DNA of 61,708 bases, the filler included, from Basidiobolus ranarum (taxonomy: Eukaryota): the NCBI GenBank assembly GCA_040143965.1. It is 21 parts of 21 records of this genome, joined end to end, with 100 filler letters (N's around TTAATTAATTAA, not from the genome) between each part and the next. Parts side by side here need not be neighbours in the genome. Positions count along the whole stretch, not along the records: positions 47,144 to 49,978 come from JASJQH010009810.1; 20 more parts are not named here. One strand, given 5' to 3'. Positions 2,856-57,244 of this stretch are shown here, one piece after another; position 1 is the first letter of the stretch; every line of letters starts with the position of its first letter. The position numbers and the translations under genes are program-made. Below the pieces are notes generated by a model. That model was not told the DNA's origin. It did not search any database and saw only the letters and a list, made by a program, of their open reading frames with translations.

Positions 2856-2955
2856 NNNNNNNNNNNNNNNNNNNNNNNNNNNNNNNNNNNNNNNNNNNNT
2901 TAATTAATTAANNNNNNNNNNNNNNNNNNNNNNNNNNNNNNNNNNNNNNNNNNNN
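2856..2955. other. Artificial contig spacer (first of 20)
   Basis: 44 N + TTAATTAATTAA (stop in all frames) + 44 N. Other spacers start at 5811, 8766, 11720, 14672, 17623, 20572, 23520, 26467, 29412, 32355, 35296, 38235, 41172, 44109, 47044, 49979, 52913, 55846 and 58778. Confidence 0.99.
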
Positions 2956-3026
2956 CTTCTTGGCTCAGTTGGCAGAGCGTCTGCCTAGTAAGCAGAAGGT
3001 CGCTGGTTCAATTCCGGCAGAAGGCA
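2956..3026 (+). tRNA. tRNA-Thr(AGT), first ~2 nt cut by contig start
   Basis: Cloverleaf: D arm GCTC/GAGC, anticodon arm TCTGC-CT-AGT-AA-GCAGA, T arm GCTGG-TTCAATT-CCGGC, acceptor CTTCT/AGAAG; followed by an oligo-T Pol III terminator. Confidence 0.93.
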
Positions 3027-4479: not shown

Positions 4480-5630
4480 ATATATTCTTGTAAACCACTT
4501 TGATTATATGTAAGTTTGTACAAACTCTCATCCTTTACTTTCAAAGCTTAAAAAATCTCATTTTGATCAGCAATGAAGCATCCTAACTTATCATGATTGA
4601 ATGTCAGTCCTTGTAAATTGGCCTTGCATACAAAAAATAAAATCTCAGCACTATCTAGAGCATTTACACATTCTTAAGAGTATACACTTCCTCTTCAGAA
4701 GCACCAGTTAAGTTGACTTGCATTGCTCCCATTCCAAAGGCTCCCATTGTAAGGTCATCTTATTTGGAAATCTGTCTCAGCAGGATTTTTCATAATCCAC
4801 AAGCCAAAGATTTTCATTTATGAAATGTCAGGAAGCTACAGAATCAATATACAACAACAGAGAGGCCTCTATGACAGTCATTAGTAGAGCAAAAATGAAT
4901 AAGTGCTTGTTTGTTTTAACCATGCTTTTTATTTCTTTTAGTTGGATCTTGATTTGCATAATACTCTATCAGAAGTTGGCCAAATGTATAATTTGAAATT
5001 CAGTTTTCAGTTGTGGATTCAAGAACCATTACTAGGCTCTGAAACCTTACTGGCTTCCCAGTCAGAGTGGTAACTGCAATCTCTTGGTTAGAGGTAGGTA
5101 ATCCAATTCATTCCCTTGTATACACTAAAATGGTGACTGTATTGAAAAGGTATTCAATCTTTTTTGCTGTTTCTGATTAATCATAAAATTGTCATCTAAT
5201 AAGCATCATATTTACCCCAAAACATGTTTGCCAGGTGTCTTCAAAGACTTTTCATACCTTCTTTGCAGGCTTGGCTCTTGAGCAATGAAAAAACATTTTC
5301 ACCAATGTTAAGACAAAGTGAACCAAAGGCACAGTTTTGTTTTTTAACCTGTGGCAAAGCTTTGATTTCAGAGAGTATTGCAAAGTTTTCTTCAACAAAA
5401 ATAATGCTGGAAAGGCCTTTTTCATGTAGCAGCATTTTGATTTTAATTACCTAAACTTGTCAAATGGTTTCATTGAAATTTTTGGAAGCAAGAACAGTTG
5501 CAGAAGTTTGAGAACTGGATATTACAAAGAGTGCAAGTTCAGATCCTATAGGCCATTTATATTTTTTTGCAGGCTGCTTGAAGTGACTTGGAGAACCAGA
5601 GAATGCATAATTCTCATCTGCCAATGCATT
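4480..5630 (-). mobile_element. Degenerate Ty1/copia gag-protease
   Basis: Reverse strand has the copia protease motif (tatattgattctgtagcttcctgacat, YIDS.AS.H) and UBN2-like gag remnants homologous to 36847-37854. Confidence 0.75.
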
Positions 5631-5810
5631 TATTGAAATTATTTAGGGAAAAATATTGGTCTGGCCAGGATTTGAACCTGGGACCTCCTTCACTGTAGCA
5701 AGGTGCTCTAACCACTGAGCTCCCAGTCCTTGTATGCTATGCTTATATTGCTAGTGAACCTTAAGCTAGTCTGTCTATGTATGGTACTTTGGCATTTCAG
5801 CTACACAAGC
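5631..5810 (-). mobile_element. tRNA-containing LTR-like element, copy 1 (truncated by contig end)
   Basis: Reverse complement of about 48425-48603; boundary TATTGAAA at 5631 abuts copia gag sequence. Confidence 0.8.
5657..5729 (-). tRNA. tRNA-like pseudogene (anticodon position ACA) inside a mobile element
   Basis: GGACTGG-GA-GCTCAGTGGTTAGAGC-A-CCTTG-CTACAGT-GAAGG-AGGTC-CCAGGTTCAAATCCTGG-CCAGACC-A; 73 nt; mismatches in the acceptor and anticodon stems. Confidence 0.7.
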
Positions 5811-5984
5811 NNNNNNNNNNNNNNNNNNNNNNNNNNNNNNNNNNNNNNNNNNNNTTAATTAATTAANNNNNNNNNNNNNNNNNNNNNNNNNNNNNNNNNN
5901 NNNNNNNNNNAGTTAACTTCAGTTATGATACATATATCAGAAACAGAAAGCAACGTATCTATAGCCCCTATATTCTAAATAGAA

Positions 5985-8865: not shown

Positions 8866-9560
8866 CAATACCCCAAAAATCCAGGATCTGAGCAAAACAT
8901 AGCAGTAAAATTAAAATACAGTTTTGTGGATAACTGTATATCTAGATCTGGAAAACTTTGGCACATGCGATGCACAAATATTTGAAGGCTATAGTGTGGC
9001 AGATTGGAAAGAAACCTTGATGATAGATGATCAACAATTGGGTACACTTTTCCCTATTGCAATATAGCCTTATCTTTGAATTATGCAAAGCAACCAATTT
9101 TAGTACTTTTCACAACAGAAGTAATGTATAACACCATCTTTTCCACTACACAAGAAGCTGTCATTAAGGAAGTTATTCTCCAACTTGGATGCATTCAATA
9201 ACATGCTATCACTATATTTGAAGTCAGTCCAAATTGAATTTCACTAGTTAGAACCCCGTATTTCATGCCAGACAAATATATAGAAACTACACACTGTTTT
9301 GCAAGAAAAGCAATAGCAAATGCCAAAATTGGACTTTTCAGTTTCACTACCAAGGAAATAATTAGTTGAATAGGAATATTGAATTGAGGTACATAGAAAC
9401 TCATTATTTATTACCAGGTTGGCTCATGTTTGAATTATTTAGCACCAAATTCTGATATTCAGAAATGCATGTTCATAGCTCTACTTGATAAATAGAGCAA
9501 TCAGATAACATTTATCAATTTGCACTATTTTCTTAAAACATTTGCAAATCATCCCAAAGC
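8866..9560 (+). mobile_element. Degenerate copia RT/RNase H fragments
   Basis: GYVFPI..WxSKKQ-like and STTEAEY-like remnants homologous to other copies in the window. Confidence 0.6.
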
Positions 9561-10199
9561 CAGTCCCAAATCTTACTGGCAAGCCTATGATGAACTAAAC
9601 TTATCCTATAGTTGTATTTTATAGTAAACTATAAATGGGACATTCAATTCAATAAATCTTAAGTGTATAATTTGTAAATCTATATTTAGTCCAAAAAACA
9701 TCCTTAATACTTACACACTTTTATTCAATTCAAAAAAAATATGCATATCTAACCAAATTTAGATATCTGGATTGGATGAATTAAGTCATTTCCCTGGAAT
9801 CCAAATTAAACAAAATATGCCAATTAGAGAATTATACTCAATTAGTCTGGACACAGCTTAGACATTCTTAAGTGCTTCTATATGGAAAAAAGCCAGAATG
9901 TGCTAACACCATTGGATCTCATTGGGATGTTTAGCAAATTGTTAACCAATTTTGCCTAAAATCATTCAAATTCATTGCAGGAGCTACTACATCAGTTCTT
10001 GATGGGTATCCAATAGTCCTACATGATAGTAAGAGTTCTCGGATATATACATTAATCACACCTGTAATAGAAGACCTAGATTTCTCAAATATGTTCCTGG
10101 GACCTTTATTAACAAATTTTACACATTGGTATATTTACATCTTGATAATGCCCACTTTCTACTCAATATGGCTAGAAGTGAAAACCACCAATTTTACTC

Positions 10200-26466: not shown

Positions 26467-26761
26467 NNNNNNNNNNNNNNNNNNNNNNNNNNNNNNNNNN
26501 NNNNNNNNNNTTAATTAATTAANNNNNNNNNNNNNNNNNNNNNNNNNNNNNNNNNNNNNNNNNNNNACCTAGACACCATTATTTAACTGTAGATCTAATT
26601 GTGGAATACTCTGGCACTCCTGAAGCATAAAGATTTATCTAGCATATCCAATAGTTGTAATTCAAACTAAACTATAAATAGGACACATTCAATTCAACCA
26701 AGCTTAAGTGTCTAACTCAAAAATCCAAATCTTGTCCAAACACTTCCGAGTCACCTAGACA

Positions 26762-28085: not shown

Positions 28086-28124
28086 ACTTTCCACTACAGA
28101 AGCAAAGTACATGGCTACCTCACT

Positions 28125-28324
28125 TTTCCATTTTCACCATTTTCTCAAAACCTCACCAAAACATCTCTAATTTTCATCCATACTTTAATGGCCTGTTTAT
28201 TATGATCAGAATATCCAATATTCCTATTCCTCAGTAAGCAATTAATAGGACCTATTCAGTTCTATATAACTTGTCTAATTCACAAATGAAACCTTGTCCA
28301 AACCATTTCCAACTCCCCTAAGCA
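28125..28324 (+). repeat. Copia LTR family A, partial
   Basis: Reverse complement of part of 31455-31797; further fragments at about 9570-9712, 26640-26761, 32735-32930 and 35233-35295. Confidence 0.7.
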
Positions 28325-32354: not shown

Positions 32355-32939
32355 NNNNNNNNNNNNNNNNNNNNNNNNNNNNNNNNNNNNNNNNNNNNTT
32401 AATTAATTAANNNNNNNNNNNNNNNNNNNNNNNNNNNNNNNNNNNNNNNNNNNNTTGGGTACTTGGTTTACAACTTCACTGTCTCCAATATGAATTGGGT
32501 TGCCTACTTCTCTAGCAGATGGAAGCTCTGTAAATTCCTCTTGGAAAACAATATTCTTTTAATACTTCTATTGGTGCAGTTAGGATATCCTTTGACTCCT
32601 TGTCCTGCAATACAGCTAATAGAAACATCCATGATTTTTCTGGACTGCTCTGCTGAACTGGCTTTTATTGGCAGACATATCACTCTTCTGGCTGGTCTAG
32701 ATCAGGTGATACTCCATTTTGGCTTATTTGGTTTATTCATATTCTGATTATTTAGCACTCAATTCTACCATCCAAAAACATGTATTTATTGCTCTAATTG
32801 ATAGAAATATCAATATGATCACTTTTACCAGTTTTCACCATTTTCTCAAATCTTCTCCAAGTCATCCCAAGCTTCACCCATGCTTAACAGACATGTTTGT
32901 TTTGATCTAAGTAAGTCCGATAGTTCTATTCCAACAGGC

Positions 32940-36814: not shown

Positions 36815-36825
36815 GGTTATGAGCC
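36815..36825 (+). promoter_or_regulatory. Primer-binding site GGTTATGAGCC (half-tRNAiMet type)
   Basis: Directly after the LTR; same type as the Drosophila copia PBS GGTTATGGGCC. Confidence 0.8.
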
Positions 36826-47271: not shown

Positions 47272-47716
47272 GTCAAGTTAGAGTTGATTTTGATCAAGTT
47301 TTCCGGTTTCAGCAGCAAAATTTCAAGATCCTGCAAAATAGTTGCACATGATTGGCTACAATCTTGGAGTACTATGGATCTACACATTTACCACTGGAAT
47401 GCCAATTTGTCACCTTAAAAATTCCGAATTTCTTTGATATATTCTTCTCAATATTTTAAATAGAGTTCTTCATACCCAAGATTGGGCTTATATCAAACAC
47501 AAGCTTGTATCAATATCTCCATCAAAGCCCACCATTGTATTAACCTTGCTGACTCAACATTCTTCCAGCTATCTGGCATATACCTTGCAATGTTGGGCTA
47601 CTGTGTATTAAATTCTTCCTAGATATCTGCATGGACAACACCAGACTGAATATCAAGTTAAATGTTCTTTGTCTGAAGCCACTTTCTGCATACTTGCACT
47701 GCATTTTTTATGAAAA
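47272..47716 (-). mobile_element. Fragment of the CCCTA-terminus DNA-transposon repeat
   Basis: Collinear with 55190-55660. Confidence 0.7.
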
Positions 47717-48053
47717 TGCTAAGGGGATTTGGAAGTGTTTTAGACAAGATTTGGAATTGTGAATTAGACACATAAAATTTATTGAGTTGAATATATCTTG
47801 TTTATAGTTTACCATGAAACAGGACTATCTGATGTGCATAGATCATAACAAACATACTTGTTAAGCTTGGGTGCAAATTTCAGATGATTTGGAGAAGTGT
47901 TGAGAAAATAGTGAAAATTTGTAAAAGTGATCTAATTGATATTTCTATCAATGAGAGCAACAAGCACACACTTTTAACAATGGAATCAAGTGCTAAATAA
48001 TCAGAATATGAATAAATATTCTAATAAAAATGAGTTGCTACCTAATTGCAACA
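47717..48053 (-). repeat. Complete copia 3' LTR (family A) with PPT; RNase H at about 48100-48321
   Basis: PPT GTTGAGTGGGAA precedes TGTTGCAATTAGG; RHIDMGHCFVRE and MIANILTKPL upstream. Confidence 0.85.
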
Positions 48054-48321
48054 TTCCCACTCAACTAATTGTTTGTATTTCTCTTGAACTTAACTTATAG
48101 CATAATAATTCAAATTATGATTTAGCTAAAGGTTTAGTCAAGATGTTGGCAATCATTTCTACAGTACGGCAACAGACAAGTTCAATTATACCATTCTCTA
48201 TTGCTTCCCTAACAAAACAATGCCCCATATCTATATGTCTTGTCATAGCATAAATGTAGGGCTTTTAGCTCAGGAAATACAACTTTGATTATTGTCTAAT
48301 ACAATGATTGCACATTTTTGC

Positions 48322-48603
48322 TGTTGAAAGTCTGGTGACTTGTGGTACAAGCAGTAATTCCCAAAGCAGAAAATATGGAGTATGGTGACTGCAAATGAAC
48401 ACAAAGTCTAAGGCCAATCAGTTGCTTGTATAGCTGAAATGCCAAAGTACCATACATTGACAGACTAGGTTAAGGTTCCCTGGCAATATAGGCATAGCAT
48501 ACAAGGACTGGTAGCTCAGTGGTTAGAGCACCTTGCTAGAGTGAAGGAGGTCCCAGGTTCAATTCCTGGCCAGACCAATATTTCTCCCTAAATAATTTCA
48601 ACA
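48322..48603 (+). mobile_element. 282-bp LTR-like element containing a tRNA-like gene (copy 2, complete)
   Basis: Termini TGTTGAAA...TTTCAACA; left flank is copia RNase H, right flank is a LINE ORF; second copy at 5631-5810. Confidence 0.8.
48505..48577 (+). tRNA. tRNA-like pseudogene (anticodon position AGA) with intact A and B boxes
   Basis: GGACTGG-TA-GCTCAGTGGTTAGAGC-A-CCTTG-CTAGAGT-GAAGG-AGGTC-CCAGGTTCAATTCCTGG-CCAGACC-A; short variable loop, so not a true Ser tRNA. Confidence 0.7.
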
Positions 48604-49978
48604 GCCTGAAAGGCAAAGAATGTATTGTTAATATATAAAGATACATCTGCATGGCTATGTGAGTGTCTACTAGTTGCTGCTATTGTTCCTACTCTATCTC
48701 TTTTGCTAAAGACTCTTGAGATATTTTGTAATTTTCTCTCAGCCATATCTGTTGAGAGAGGAACTTGAATACCAGGGGCATGTTTTGCATTTTCTTTGAG
48801 ATACTTCTGAAATCCATCTGGCTTACAAATGTTTGCTAACACAAGTGAGGTTGGACAAGCAATAACTGTCTAGCATTCAATTGCTGCTACTAAGTCTCTG
48901 AGTGGATTTGTAGAAGCTTTGATATAATGTAATCCAAATCGGATTCCCAAGGTTTTCAAATCCATTGTGCATAGATTCAATTCCAGTCAGGCTTTGAATT
49001 AATCTCCGGTACTGCTTGGAGTGATACTTGGAGGCATTAACTACCTAACCTAGTGCTTGTTGTTGGACAAGTTCTACTTTGTTGCACAGATTGCTGGTCA
49101 GAGTCAACTGCGTTAGTGGGGCAGCATACTCCCGTCTGGATCTAATAAATGTTCTAAAGAGATGAAGCATGATTAAAGGAGGCCAACAAGAACCTTTGAG
49201 CTGTAGCGGCTTTAAAATATGGGATGCTTTAGCTGTGCAGCTTTCAATATAGCTTGGCCAATCAATCTCATGCTTGGTAATGGGAAGTCCCAAGTAGTAA
49301 TACATTGTTGGCATTGGGATGTTGACACCATATAAGCAGAGTTTCCATTCCTCAGAGGGTCCAACAAAGCCAGACTTTGCGATATTGATTTCCATAACAT
49401 CATCTGAGCACCATCTTGTAATGCATTCCAGTAGTTGGTTTGCATGTCCCAGGCTCTCTGCAAGAAGCATGATTTCATTGGCAAATAACAATGCTGAGAG
49501 GACTGGTCTATCAGTGTTATGAGAAGCAAGTTCTTGAGCCAGATCTTCAATATAAGCATTGAATAGGAATAGTGATAGAAGTGAACCCTGAAATAGGCCA
49601 TGAAATCTTGGAAATGGCAGAGATGTAGCCCCATTGACACTGATGGTTGAGTAACAGGAAGAAAATAATGTGAAGATTAATCTCACTAGCTGAGATGATG
49701 CTCCAAAATTTCTAAGCTTTTTTAAGAGTATTGATATTACAACTTGATTGTATGCCTGCTTAAGATCTATAAATACTCTATTTGGCCTCTGATAAAGCCT
49801 TGACAAGTGGCAAGCATCATATGAAATTATTGAGTGGGAAATAGTAGAGAAGCCCTTTCTGAAGCCTGCCTGAGAGTAATGAAAGCTTGAAAGCTGTTGT
49901 GCACCAACATACAAAGTTGTTTAACTTACGCCATATCTATACAACTTGCATGAATATCTGTTTAGTTTATCATTCTTG
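48604..49978 (-). mobile_element. Degenerate non-LTR (LINE) reverse transcriptase
   Basis: QAGFRKGFST, FIDLKQAYNQV, GLFQGSLLSLFLFNAYI, LLFANEI (decayed FADD), YYYLGLP. Confidence 0.92.
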
Positions 49979-56643: not shown

Positions 56644-57244
56644 GATTCAATCCAGACCAAATGGATCTTACTTTTGTAAAGGTGAATCAAAAAATGCTGA
56701 AAATCAGAGACAAGGCTGAATATTCAAATGACAAGTGAGAAGATATGATGGAAGTTGTCAGAAAGCTTTCCAGAGGTAGCATTGATTGCTAGTAAAGCCG
56801 GAAAGAATAGAGGCCAGGAGTCAAACTGTCATTGATGGGCTACTATTACACTGCTAATTTGGAGTTTCTCAGGGCCAATAGCTACTGGGCAACCATTGGT
56901 CTTTTTGTGGGGCACATGAAAAATGTGCAAGCATATAATCAAGCCACAACTAAGGCTCCAACTGTGGCTAAAATCCCATCCTCAAATGAGTAACATGAGA
57001 ATATGGCTCCTGCACCTATCCAGTCAGGAAGCTTCACTAATACTGCCAAAAAGCCAGCTGCTGAAGCAAGTGCACATACCCAAACTAGATAGCAAAAGAA
57101 ACCATACCTAACATCTCTGTCCAAAAATAAAACTCAATCCCCCCAGGCAGCCAAGAGAAAACTGCAATATAAGCACAGTGGCCATTTAGAAGCTTATACT
57201 CTCAGCTCTTGGATAATGGAGTATTATGCCAAGAGGCATAGGGG

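Follow-up and report, generated by a model that had tools for sequence, protein, structure and literature searches.

A 282-bp repeat with LTR-type ends and an embedded tRNA-like sequence in Basidiobolus ranarum: a candidate Helenus-type element

Introduction

What is a tRNA-like cloverleaf doing inside a short repeat that ends in the manner of a retrotransposon long terminal repeat (LTR)? The question arises from a stretch of 61,708 nucleotides of the fungus Basidiobolus ranarum (assembly GCA_040143965.1), hereafter called the window, in which a 282-bp unit at positions 48322-48603 contains such a cloverleaf. Our analysis showed that the unit is a discrete repeated mobile sequence with LTR-type ends and an embedded tRNA-like sequence. 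Judged from these features, it may be the LTR, solo or recombinant, of a small LTR retrotransposon family with a tRNA-derived module, comparable to the Helenus elements of the TRIMp3 class, a reading to which we assign a probability of about 0.5.

The window consists of 21 separate contigs of 2831-2855 bp in falling order of size, numbered here in that order and joined by linkers of the form N44-TTAATTAATTAA-N44 (2856-2955 and 5811-5910, for example). Features that span a linker and distances between contigs are therefore artificial, and flanks are meaningful only within one contig. The complete copy of the unit lies on contig 17 (47144-49978) and the second copy at the end of contig 2 (2956-5810); these two contigs are tied to the host gene on contig 7 (see below) by association only, through membership of one assembly, a similar G+C content (33-38%) and repeat families in common.

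Results

The unit and its two copies

48322-48603, plus strand (sense of the tRNA-like sequence): the 282-bp repeat unit in its complete copy, a candidate LTR (solo or recombinant), with edges placed where the flanking copia and LINE (long interspersed nuclear element) homologies stop and where copy 2 diverges
48322-48329, no strand: left terminal inverted repeat TGTTGAAA, read from the sequence
48596-48603, no strand: right terminal inverted repeat TTTCAACA, read from the sequence
5631-5810, minus strand: second copy of the unit, 94.4% identical over 178 bp, terminus TTTCAATA
48505-48577, plus strand: tRNA-like cloverleaf (ARAGORN; Rfam, 57.8 bits), anticodon AGA, without a long variable arm, with A3:A70 and G31:G39 mismatches
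48512-48522, plus strand: A box TAGCTCAGTGG, read from the sequence
48556-48566, plus strand: B box GGTTCAATTCC, an 11-mer also present in the tRNA-Thr of the window
48581-48583, plus strand: short T run (TTT, then CT) 4 nt past the end of the tRNA-like sequence; copy 2 has TTTTT at this place
5657-5729, minus strand: tRNA-like sequence of copy 2 (54.1 bits), anticodon ACA, G at position 8, the same two stem mismatches

The ends of the unit, which an earlier interpretation (the sequence-only reading) had described as 8-bp inverted termini TGTTGAAA...TTTCAACA of the TG...CA form, can be read directly at 48322-48329 and 48596-48603. A repeat search lengthens the perfect inverted repeat to 10 nt by including an outer GC on each side (GCTGTTGAAA/TTTCAACAGC), a dinucleotide that the copia and LINE sequences flanking the unit explain as well. 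As a measure of chance, we screened the 53,547 other 282-bp spans of the window for a perfect 8-bp terminal inverted repeat, allowing 3 nt either way: 79 (0.15%) had one of any kind and 10 (0.02%) had one of the TG...CA form. Since the boundaries of the unit are fixed independently by the homology of its flanks, its terminal inverted repeat stands above chance. TGTTG...CAACA is, moreover, the classic end of Ty1/copia and Ty3 LTRs.

The two copies align from 48424-48601 to 5810-5633 with 94.4% identity over 178 bp, and the homology between them ends 1-3 nt from the TG...CA inverted repeat. Copy 2 stops at 5810 because contig 2 ends there, and not for a biological reason. It had been credited with the cloverleaf, some 80 nt of upstream sequence, a copia gag neighbour and the same terminus; all of these stand apart from the last, the terminus being TTTCAATA rather than TTTCAACA. 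Sequence comparison and the Rfam tRNA model gave no third copy of the unit and no further tRNA-like relic within the window, and scans of metagenomes and of prokaryote genomes returned 0 matches to the unit. The copies of the unit are 94.4% alike, compared with 68-85% among the copia LTR copies of the window, and they sit inside decayed elements, so the unit family would be younger than its surroundings; this fits a recently mobile family.

The unit has no coding capacity. A 57-amino-acid frame in its left part yielded no candidate in a protein search, and a 40-amino-acid frame through the tRNA-like sequence yielded 15 matches at E <= 0.001, mostly of low identity in multiple stretches (44-57% where given), which looked uninformative here. 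Its folding energy was at the level of shuffled sequences on both strands (z -0.5 and -0.7), with no excess of hairpin folding.

The tRNA-like module is well kept and does not look like a decoding tRNA

The 73-nt cloverleaf with A and B boxes proposed at 48505-48577 was called both by ARAGORN and by the Rfam tRNA model, whose gathering score is 29; the A box was judged against the familiar consensus. Its 57.8 bits come close to the 58.1 bits that the same model gives to a genuine tRNA-Thr(AGT) at the start of contig 2 (about 2954-3026, plus strand). This tRNA-Thr has lost its first base or bases at the contig start, is directly followed by TTTTT and has the same B box, GGTTCAATTCC, as the unit.

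The A:A (3:70) and G:G (31:39) mismatches common to both copies, already noticed in the sequence-only reading, are flagged in the Rfam alignment, and the anticodons do differ as it had stated: ARAGORN calls Ser(AGA) for the complete copy, with the anticodon at 48538-48540, and Cys(ACA) for the second. Serine tRNAs are class II tRNAs with a long variable arm, so that on a body without such an arm AGA cannot mark a normal serine tRNA. The module thus does not look like a functional tRNA, with a serine anticodon on a class I body, an anticodon that varies between the copies and a G in place of U8 in copy 2. With the shared mismatches added, its look agrees with the proposal that the cassette is not a decoding tRNA. 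The copies differ at three positions within the tRNA-like sequence (position 8, anticodon position 35 and T-loop position 59), all of them unpaired, and at seven of the remaining 105 aligned bases.

By comparison with known tRNA sequences, the parent isotype may be Cys, Thr or Ala; identity to the tRNA-Thr of the window is 73.6% over 53 nt. Elsewhere, at 56644-56664 (plus strand) and right after a site of the 11-mer TGTTGAAATTA discussed below, the sequence gattcaatccagaccaaatgg is similar to the part of the tRNA-like sequence that comprises its T-arm and the 3' end of its acceptor (ttcaattcctggccagacca). It could be a chance likeness or a relic of a related element.

Three junctions inside broken transposon genes

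47711-48321, minus strand: left flank of copy 1, a degenerate copia comprising the RNase H C-terminal region, broken off at 48320-48322, then the pol end, gagtgggaa as a polypurine-like stretch, and a 3' LTR (about 48046 to 47711)
48600-49953, minus strand: right flank of copy 1, a degenerate LINE open reading frame 2 (ORF2) with reverse transcriptase domain (RVT_1, 7.6e-20) and part of the C-terminal region, broken at 48600-48604
4801-5630, minus strand: flank of copy 2, a degenerate copia gag up to the start of the protease, beginning at about gag residue 23 at the end of the unit

The neighbours that had been named for the two copies, a copia RNase H to the left of copy 1, a LINE to its right and a copia gag beside copy 2, were all recovered, as was the lack of a target duplication at copy 1. 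On the left of copy 1, bases 47629-48322 of contig 17 are 77% identical to 31362-32066 of contig 11, and the minus-strand translation of both is the C-terminal part of a copia RNase H followed by the pol end (...RHIDMGHCFVREAIENGIIELV...LTKPL). Contig 11 then runs on into ...SITEAEYMAASATTQEAM..., with its ...TEAEYMAAS... core, where contig 17 switches to the unit at 48320-48322.

On the right, the four aligned LINE ORF2 homologues (516-999 amino acids) all match down to base 48600, which corresponds to residue 929 of 994 (P0121), 933 of 999 (P0122), 923 of 990 (P0124) and 449 of 516 (P0123). They continue for a further 65-67 residues, from ...QAIRWRMN... through a Cys/His motif that is missing from the LINE beside the unit. 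The latter reads ...NTFFAFQAV and then EII-stop, its last codons lying inside the unit, and its remains (48600-49953) hold in-frame stops and a frame shift near 48950. Full-length homologues measure 990-1060 amino acids, are 28-55% identical to it and have the Cys/His motif at their end. One homologue, P0126, also has a match to the endonuclease family PF03372 of Pfam.

The edge of copy 2 (TTTCAATA, 5638-5631) is followed by NALADENYAF, which resembles AKLDGENYNFW at about residues 23-33 of an intact copia gag open reading frame at 36823. Residues 271-304 of the same gag are matched at 4801-4902, 730 bp further on and with colinear spacing (E 4e-5). The three junctions thus fall in three different broken transposon genes, which marks the unit as an inserted or recombined mobile sequence and not as a duplicated tRNA locus.

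These junctions also dispose of several local explanations. As the 3' untranslated region of the adjoining LINE, with copy 2 belonging to a 5'-truncated LINE, the unit would have to follow a complete ORF2; the reading frame is cut 65-67 residues before its homologues end, and the unit is therefore not the tail of this LINE. Neither is it the 3' LTR of the copia on its left, which lies on the other strand, is cut within RNase H and has a polypurine-like tract and LTR of its own at about 48055-47711. An in-place 5' LTR for the gag of copy 2 was also rejected: gag residue 23 or so lies only 1-3 nt from the unit, and the intact copia of contig 13 has a stretch of about 78 nt, with the primer-binding site in it, between the LTR end and this residue.

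A 22-nt inverted match (86%) links the trailer of the unit (48579-48600, plus strand) with LINE reverse transcriptase coding sequence (49822-49843, ...TISHSIIS...). It is probably due to chance, though it may be microhomology at a recombination joint.

Resident copia elements and a shared terminal 11-mer

48046-47711 (minus strand); 31797-31440; 2733-2492; 9356-9703; 32732-32933; 28120-28324; 26637-26756; 35287-35226: sites of the copia LTR family of the window

The window is dominated by copia remains. Seven contigs bear a family of copia LTRs of about 336 bp (68-85% identity), and most of its members are fragments or solo copies whose downstream flanks are unrelated; they start with TGTTG(A/C)AATTAGG after a purine run and end at about ...CACTTTCA. 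The copia of contig 13 has an intact gag, an open frame of 343 residues (Retrotran_gag_2, 3.2e-38), with GGTTATGAGCC at 36815-36825 (plus strand), about 20 nt upstream of the gag ATG. We take GGTTATGAGCC to be a primer-binding site complementary to the initiator tRNA's anticodon loop, a mode of priming also known from Ty5 and Drosophila copia.

In reverse complement, the right terminus of the unit (48593-48603) reads TGTTGAAATTA, an 11-mer with three other sites in the window and thus four matches against 0.14 expected. On contig 11, a copia 3' LTR begins with TGTTGAAATTA after the pol end and the purine run gagagggaa; the homologous place on contig 17 has TGTTGCAATTA. This is a lead that the unit may have integrase-recognition ends in common with the resident copia. 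It is weak, since two of the four TGTTGAAATTA sites are not evident LTR ends, the exact start of the copia LTR is uncertain, and the information on orientation amounts to three bases, LTR ends being inverted repeats. Beyond this terminal 11-mer, comparison of the unit with the copia LTR family of the window gave no similarity.

Discussion

A candidate LTR with a tRNA-derived module

Ends of the TG...CA form (TGTTG...CAACA type), a length of 282 bp and the occurrence of isolated units within other retroelements point to a solo LTR. Solo and recombinant Ty1/copia LTRs have just such ends, measure a few hundred base pairs and are found inside other elements, and recombination between the LTRs of different insertions leaves unrelated flanks without a target duplication. 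As the two flanks of copy 1 belong to different elements, copia and LINE, a duplication is not to be expected there. The copia elements of the window, one with an initiator-tRNA primer site, would put helpers at hand and were counted in favour of the LTR reading. What sets the unit apart from an ordinary copia LTR, which carries RNA polymerase II signals and no cloverleaf, is the cloverleaf itself.

To the sequence-only reading, a fungal LTR with a tRNA inside it was unknown, a statement contradicted by Kojima's description (2024; PMC10886601) of Helenus, terminal-repeat retrotransposons in miniature that copia mobilises and whose LTRs contain tRNA-like sequences. According to that description, rust fungi (Pucciniales) contain 113 Helenus families, and further ones occur in Agaricomycetes (Agaricus, Coprinopsis and Amylostereum); the length of a whole element is 311-1263 bp, and LTRs range from 120 bp, in a single plant family, up to 323 bp. 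The fungal families show 5-bp target duplications and many solo LTRs and are apparently moved by copia, most Helenus elements having, like their copia partners, a primer site complementary to the initiator tRNA's anticodon loop. Their tRNA-like sequences mostly fail isotype checks and inflate tRNA predictions, with 'tRNA-Ser-AGA' common in rust genomes (PMC10886601). Helenus is grouped in TRIMp3 with Cassandra (5S-derived, in plants) and Ajax (5S-derived, in nemerteans), and insertion of a short interspersed nuclear element (SINE) into an LTR has been proposed as the origin of these elements (PMC10886601).

Set against this account, our unit shares with Helenus a well-kept tRNA-like sequence with conserved A and B boxes in both copies (57.8 and 54.1 bits), inconsistent isotypes including a 'Ser-AGA' call, a length (282 bp) within the 120-323 bp range of Helenus LTRs, and TG...CA ends with a short inverted repeat corresponding to LTR termini. 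The host is likewise a copia-rich fungus in which one copia has a putative initiator-tRNA anticodon-loop primer site, and isolated units would agree with the frequency of solo Helenus LTRs. The differences are that paired LTRs, a primer-binding site, a polypurine tract and a 5-bp duplication were not seen around the two copies of the unit, and that its host belongs to Zoopagomycota, whereas the fungal Helenus hosts in the main text and Table 1 of the paper are all Basidiomycota (PMC10886601). By this comparison of described features, the unit most resembles Helenus and is probably an element of that kind.

The likeness to Cassandra, as described in the same source, lies in a small-RNA gene fragment with an internal RNA polymerase III promoter in the LTRs of a tiny non-autonomous element. 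Cassandra differs in being derived from 5S rRNA and confined to plants and ferns, where the unit is tRNA-derived, and polymerase III transcription has been validated for Cassandra (PMC10886601), whereas for the unit it is hypothetical. SINE2 elements, which include fungal ones such as AfuSINE2 of Aspergillus fumigatus (PMC5063351), resemble the unit in being short, non-coding and dispersed and in having a tRNA-derived module with A and B boxes. Their tRNA head is, however, 5'-terminal and followed by a body and an A-rich or LINE-derived tail, whereas the unit has 183 nt before its tRNA-like sequence, 26 nt after it and no tail.

How such an element might work

Beyond the observed repeat, we infer that it is an LTR, that it uses polymerase III, that copia helps to move it and that its mismatched flanks arose by recombination. 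A full element would consist of an LTR, a primer-binding site, a short internal part, a polypurine tract and a second LTR. Through its A and B boxes, the tRNA-like sequence would recruit RNA polymerase III and serve as the element's own promoter; the transcript would begin near 48505 in the 5' LTR and would have to read through the short T run. Proteins of the resident copia elements would then package, reverse-transcribe and integrate the RNA, the copia integrase recognising the TGTTG...CAACA ends. Recombination between one element's two LTRs would yield solo LTRs, and recombination between LTRs of two insertions would yield unrelated flanks without a target duplication, as at copy 1. We regard this model, with the tRNA module as promoter and copia as mover, as tentative and more likely wrong in some part than right as a whole. 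Much the same caution applies to the suggestion that the element arose independently in the Basidiobolus lineage as a recently active, polymerase III-driven TRIMp3-type element moved by copia with initiator-tRNA anticodon-loop priming, which is possible and somewhat on the doubtful side. Roles of the tRNA-like sequence as polymerase III promoter, insulator or primer source, put forward in the sequence-only reading, are conjecture.

Several observations weigh against the LTR reading or its polymerase III version. Only two copies of the unit are present in the data, its left end is observed once, no direct pair of units occurs, and a primer-binding site or polypurine tract is found next to neither of the copies. 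To the left of copy 1 stands TTTGC and to its right GCCTG, and it has no target duplication. Its mismatched flanks could be a mis-join through the 282-bp repeat in a very fragmented assembly, which would look the same as recombination. If the match of TGTTGAAATTA to the start of a copia LTR is taken as a guide, the tRNA-like sequence is antisense and unfit as a polymerase III promoter; the exact start of that copia LTR is itself uncertain. In copy 2, the TTTTT lying 4 nt past the tRNA-like sequence should stop polymerase III before any primer-binding site. Lastly, the restriction of the copy differences to unpaired positions of the cloverleaf, with a probability of about 0.08 by chance, is no more than a weak hint of constraint on the tRNA-like sequence.

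Alternative explanations

The main rival keeps the LTR and makes the cloverleaf a passenger, an old insertion of a SINE or tRNA gene, possibly in antisense, in an LTR transcribed by polymerase II like that of an ordinary copia. The termini speak for it as much as for an LTR with a working module, and the antisense placement suggested by TGTTGAAATTA and the TTTTT of copy 2, which would end a polymerase III transcript at once, fall in with it, as do a putative CCAAT-like GGCCAATCAG and TATA-like stretches read by eye upstream of the tRNA-like sequence. Against a passenger stand the score of 57.8 bits, compared with 58.1 for a genuine tRNA, and the perfect A and B boxes despite 5.6% divergence between the copies, a state that is easier to understand if the module matters; the precedents Cassandra, Helenus and Ajax are taken as promoter capture in Kojima's account (PMC10886601). 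We consider a passenger unlikely, if still a serious contender. A small non-autonomous DNA transposon, similar to a miniature inverted-repeat transposable element, that acquired a tRNA-like sequence and was moved by a transposase would explain why the ends of a small, noncoding sequence inserted inside other elements form a perfect inverted repeat of 10 nt (GCTGTTGAAA/TTTCAACAGC). Once the outer GC is attributed to the copia and LINE flanks, however, what is left are the TG...CA ends typical of LTRs; copy 1 has no target duplication and two unrelated flanks, there is no hairpin-like fold above chance, and no transposase gene was seen in the window, none having been looked for. Such a transposon is quite unlikely.

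It is very unlikely that the unit is not mobile at all, being a dispersed duplicate of a degenerate tRNA locus, or contig 17 a mis-assembly through a short repeat, or both. The existence of two copies only, the unrelated flanks of copy 1, an extremely fragmented assembly with 2.8-kb contigs ending in repeats, and a genuine tRNA-Thr that also lies at a contig end would all suit this explanation. It does not account for copy homology that ends 1-3 nt from a significant TG...CA inverted repeat, nor for three junctions that cut transposon frames whose homologues continue, the mark of insertion and not of segmental duplication; a mis-join would explain the flanks, yet two insertions with identical ends would still be needed. 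Most improbable, in our view, is LINE-driven movement of a SINE-like retroposon, or of a part of one, that is atypical or composite. Its attractions are a tRNA-derived module with A and B boxes, a copy directly adjoining a LINE, and the existence of tRNA-related SINEs in fungi, as reported for Aspergillus fumigatus AfuSINE2 (PMC5063351). The tRNA-like sequence is not 5'-terminal, though, as at least 81 nt of the repeat, and probably 183 nt, precede it; in the 26 nt past it there is neither an A-run nor a simple repeat; Rfam (E up to 10) found no second polymerase III module upstream; and the break in the adjoining LINE lies within ORF2, which means that the unit is not its tail and has no 3' end in common with it. 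The earlier argument against a SINE therefore holds, on the upstream repeat of at least 81 nt, the 26-nt trailer, the missing A-tail and the LINE cut in ORF2.

Three further variants were tried and rejected. A dimeric SINE would have a second polymerase III module upstream, and Rfam gave none at E up to 10. A complete mini-element with internal mini-LTRs is contradicted by the presence of only a 12-nt direct repeat within the 282 bp. As for a primer-binding site supplied by the unit's own tRNA, on the other strand the terminus is indeed followed by the complement of the tRNA 3' end, yet without the TGG of a CCA end, and the tRNA is whole.

Implications

As the Helenus/TRIMp3 class has already been described, the unit, read as a candidate Helenus-type LTR, opens no new kind of mechanism, and the claim of novelty made for it fails. 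What is likely to be new is the host lineage, Zoopagomycota; a limited literature search found no report of tRNA-bearing LTR elements in Basidiobolus or Zoopagomycota. If our reading is correct, it would extend tRNA-bearing LTR mini-elements from Basidiomycota to Zoopagomycota and support repeated capture of small-RNA promoters by LTR elements. It would also add a second fungal system whose excess of 'tRNA genes' in fact consists of LTRs, since units called as tRNA genes ('Ser-AGA', 'Cys-ACA') would swell such counts. Units of this kind also break short-read assemblies of Basidiobolus-type genomes.

Other observations in the window

The only clear host gene met in the window is represented by a gamma-glutamyltranspeptidase exon on contig 7 (17725-18396, plus strand; Pfam PF01019, 5.3e-70), which reads through 224 residues without interruption. 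It matches a protein of Basidiobolus ranarum at 86% identity, one of B. meristosporus at 83%, and another B. ranarum entry at 95% over 58% of the query, in keeping with an origin of the assembly in Basidiobolus (Zoopagomycota).

Direct repeats lie within 29541-31445 of contig 11: three long ones of 116-279 nt with 80-84% identity and one of 21 nt with 95%, at spacings of 955-1241 bp. The arrangement suggests tandem or nested duplication of a transposon segment.

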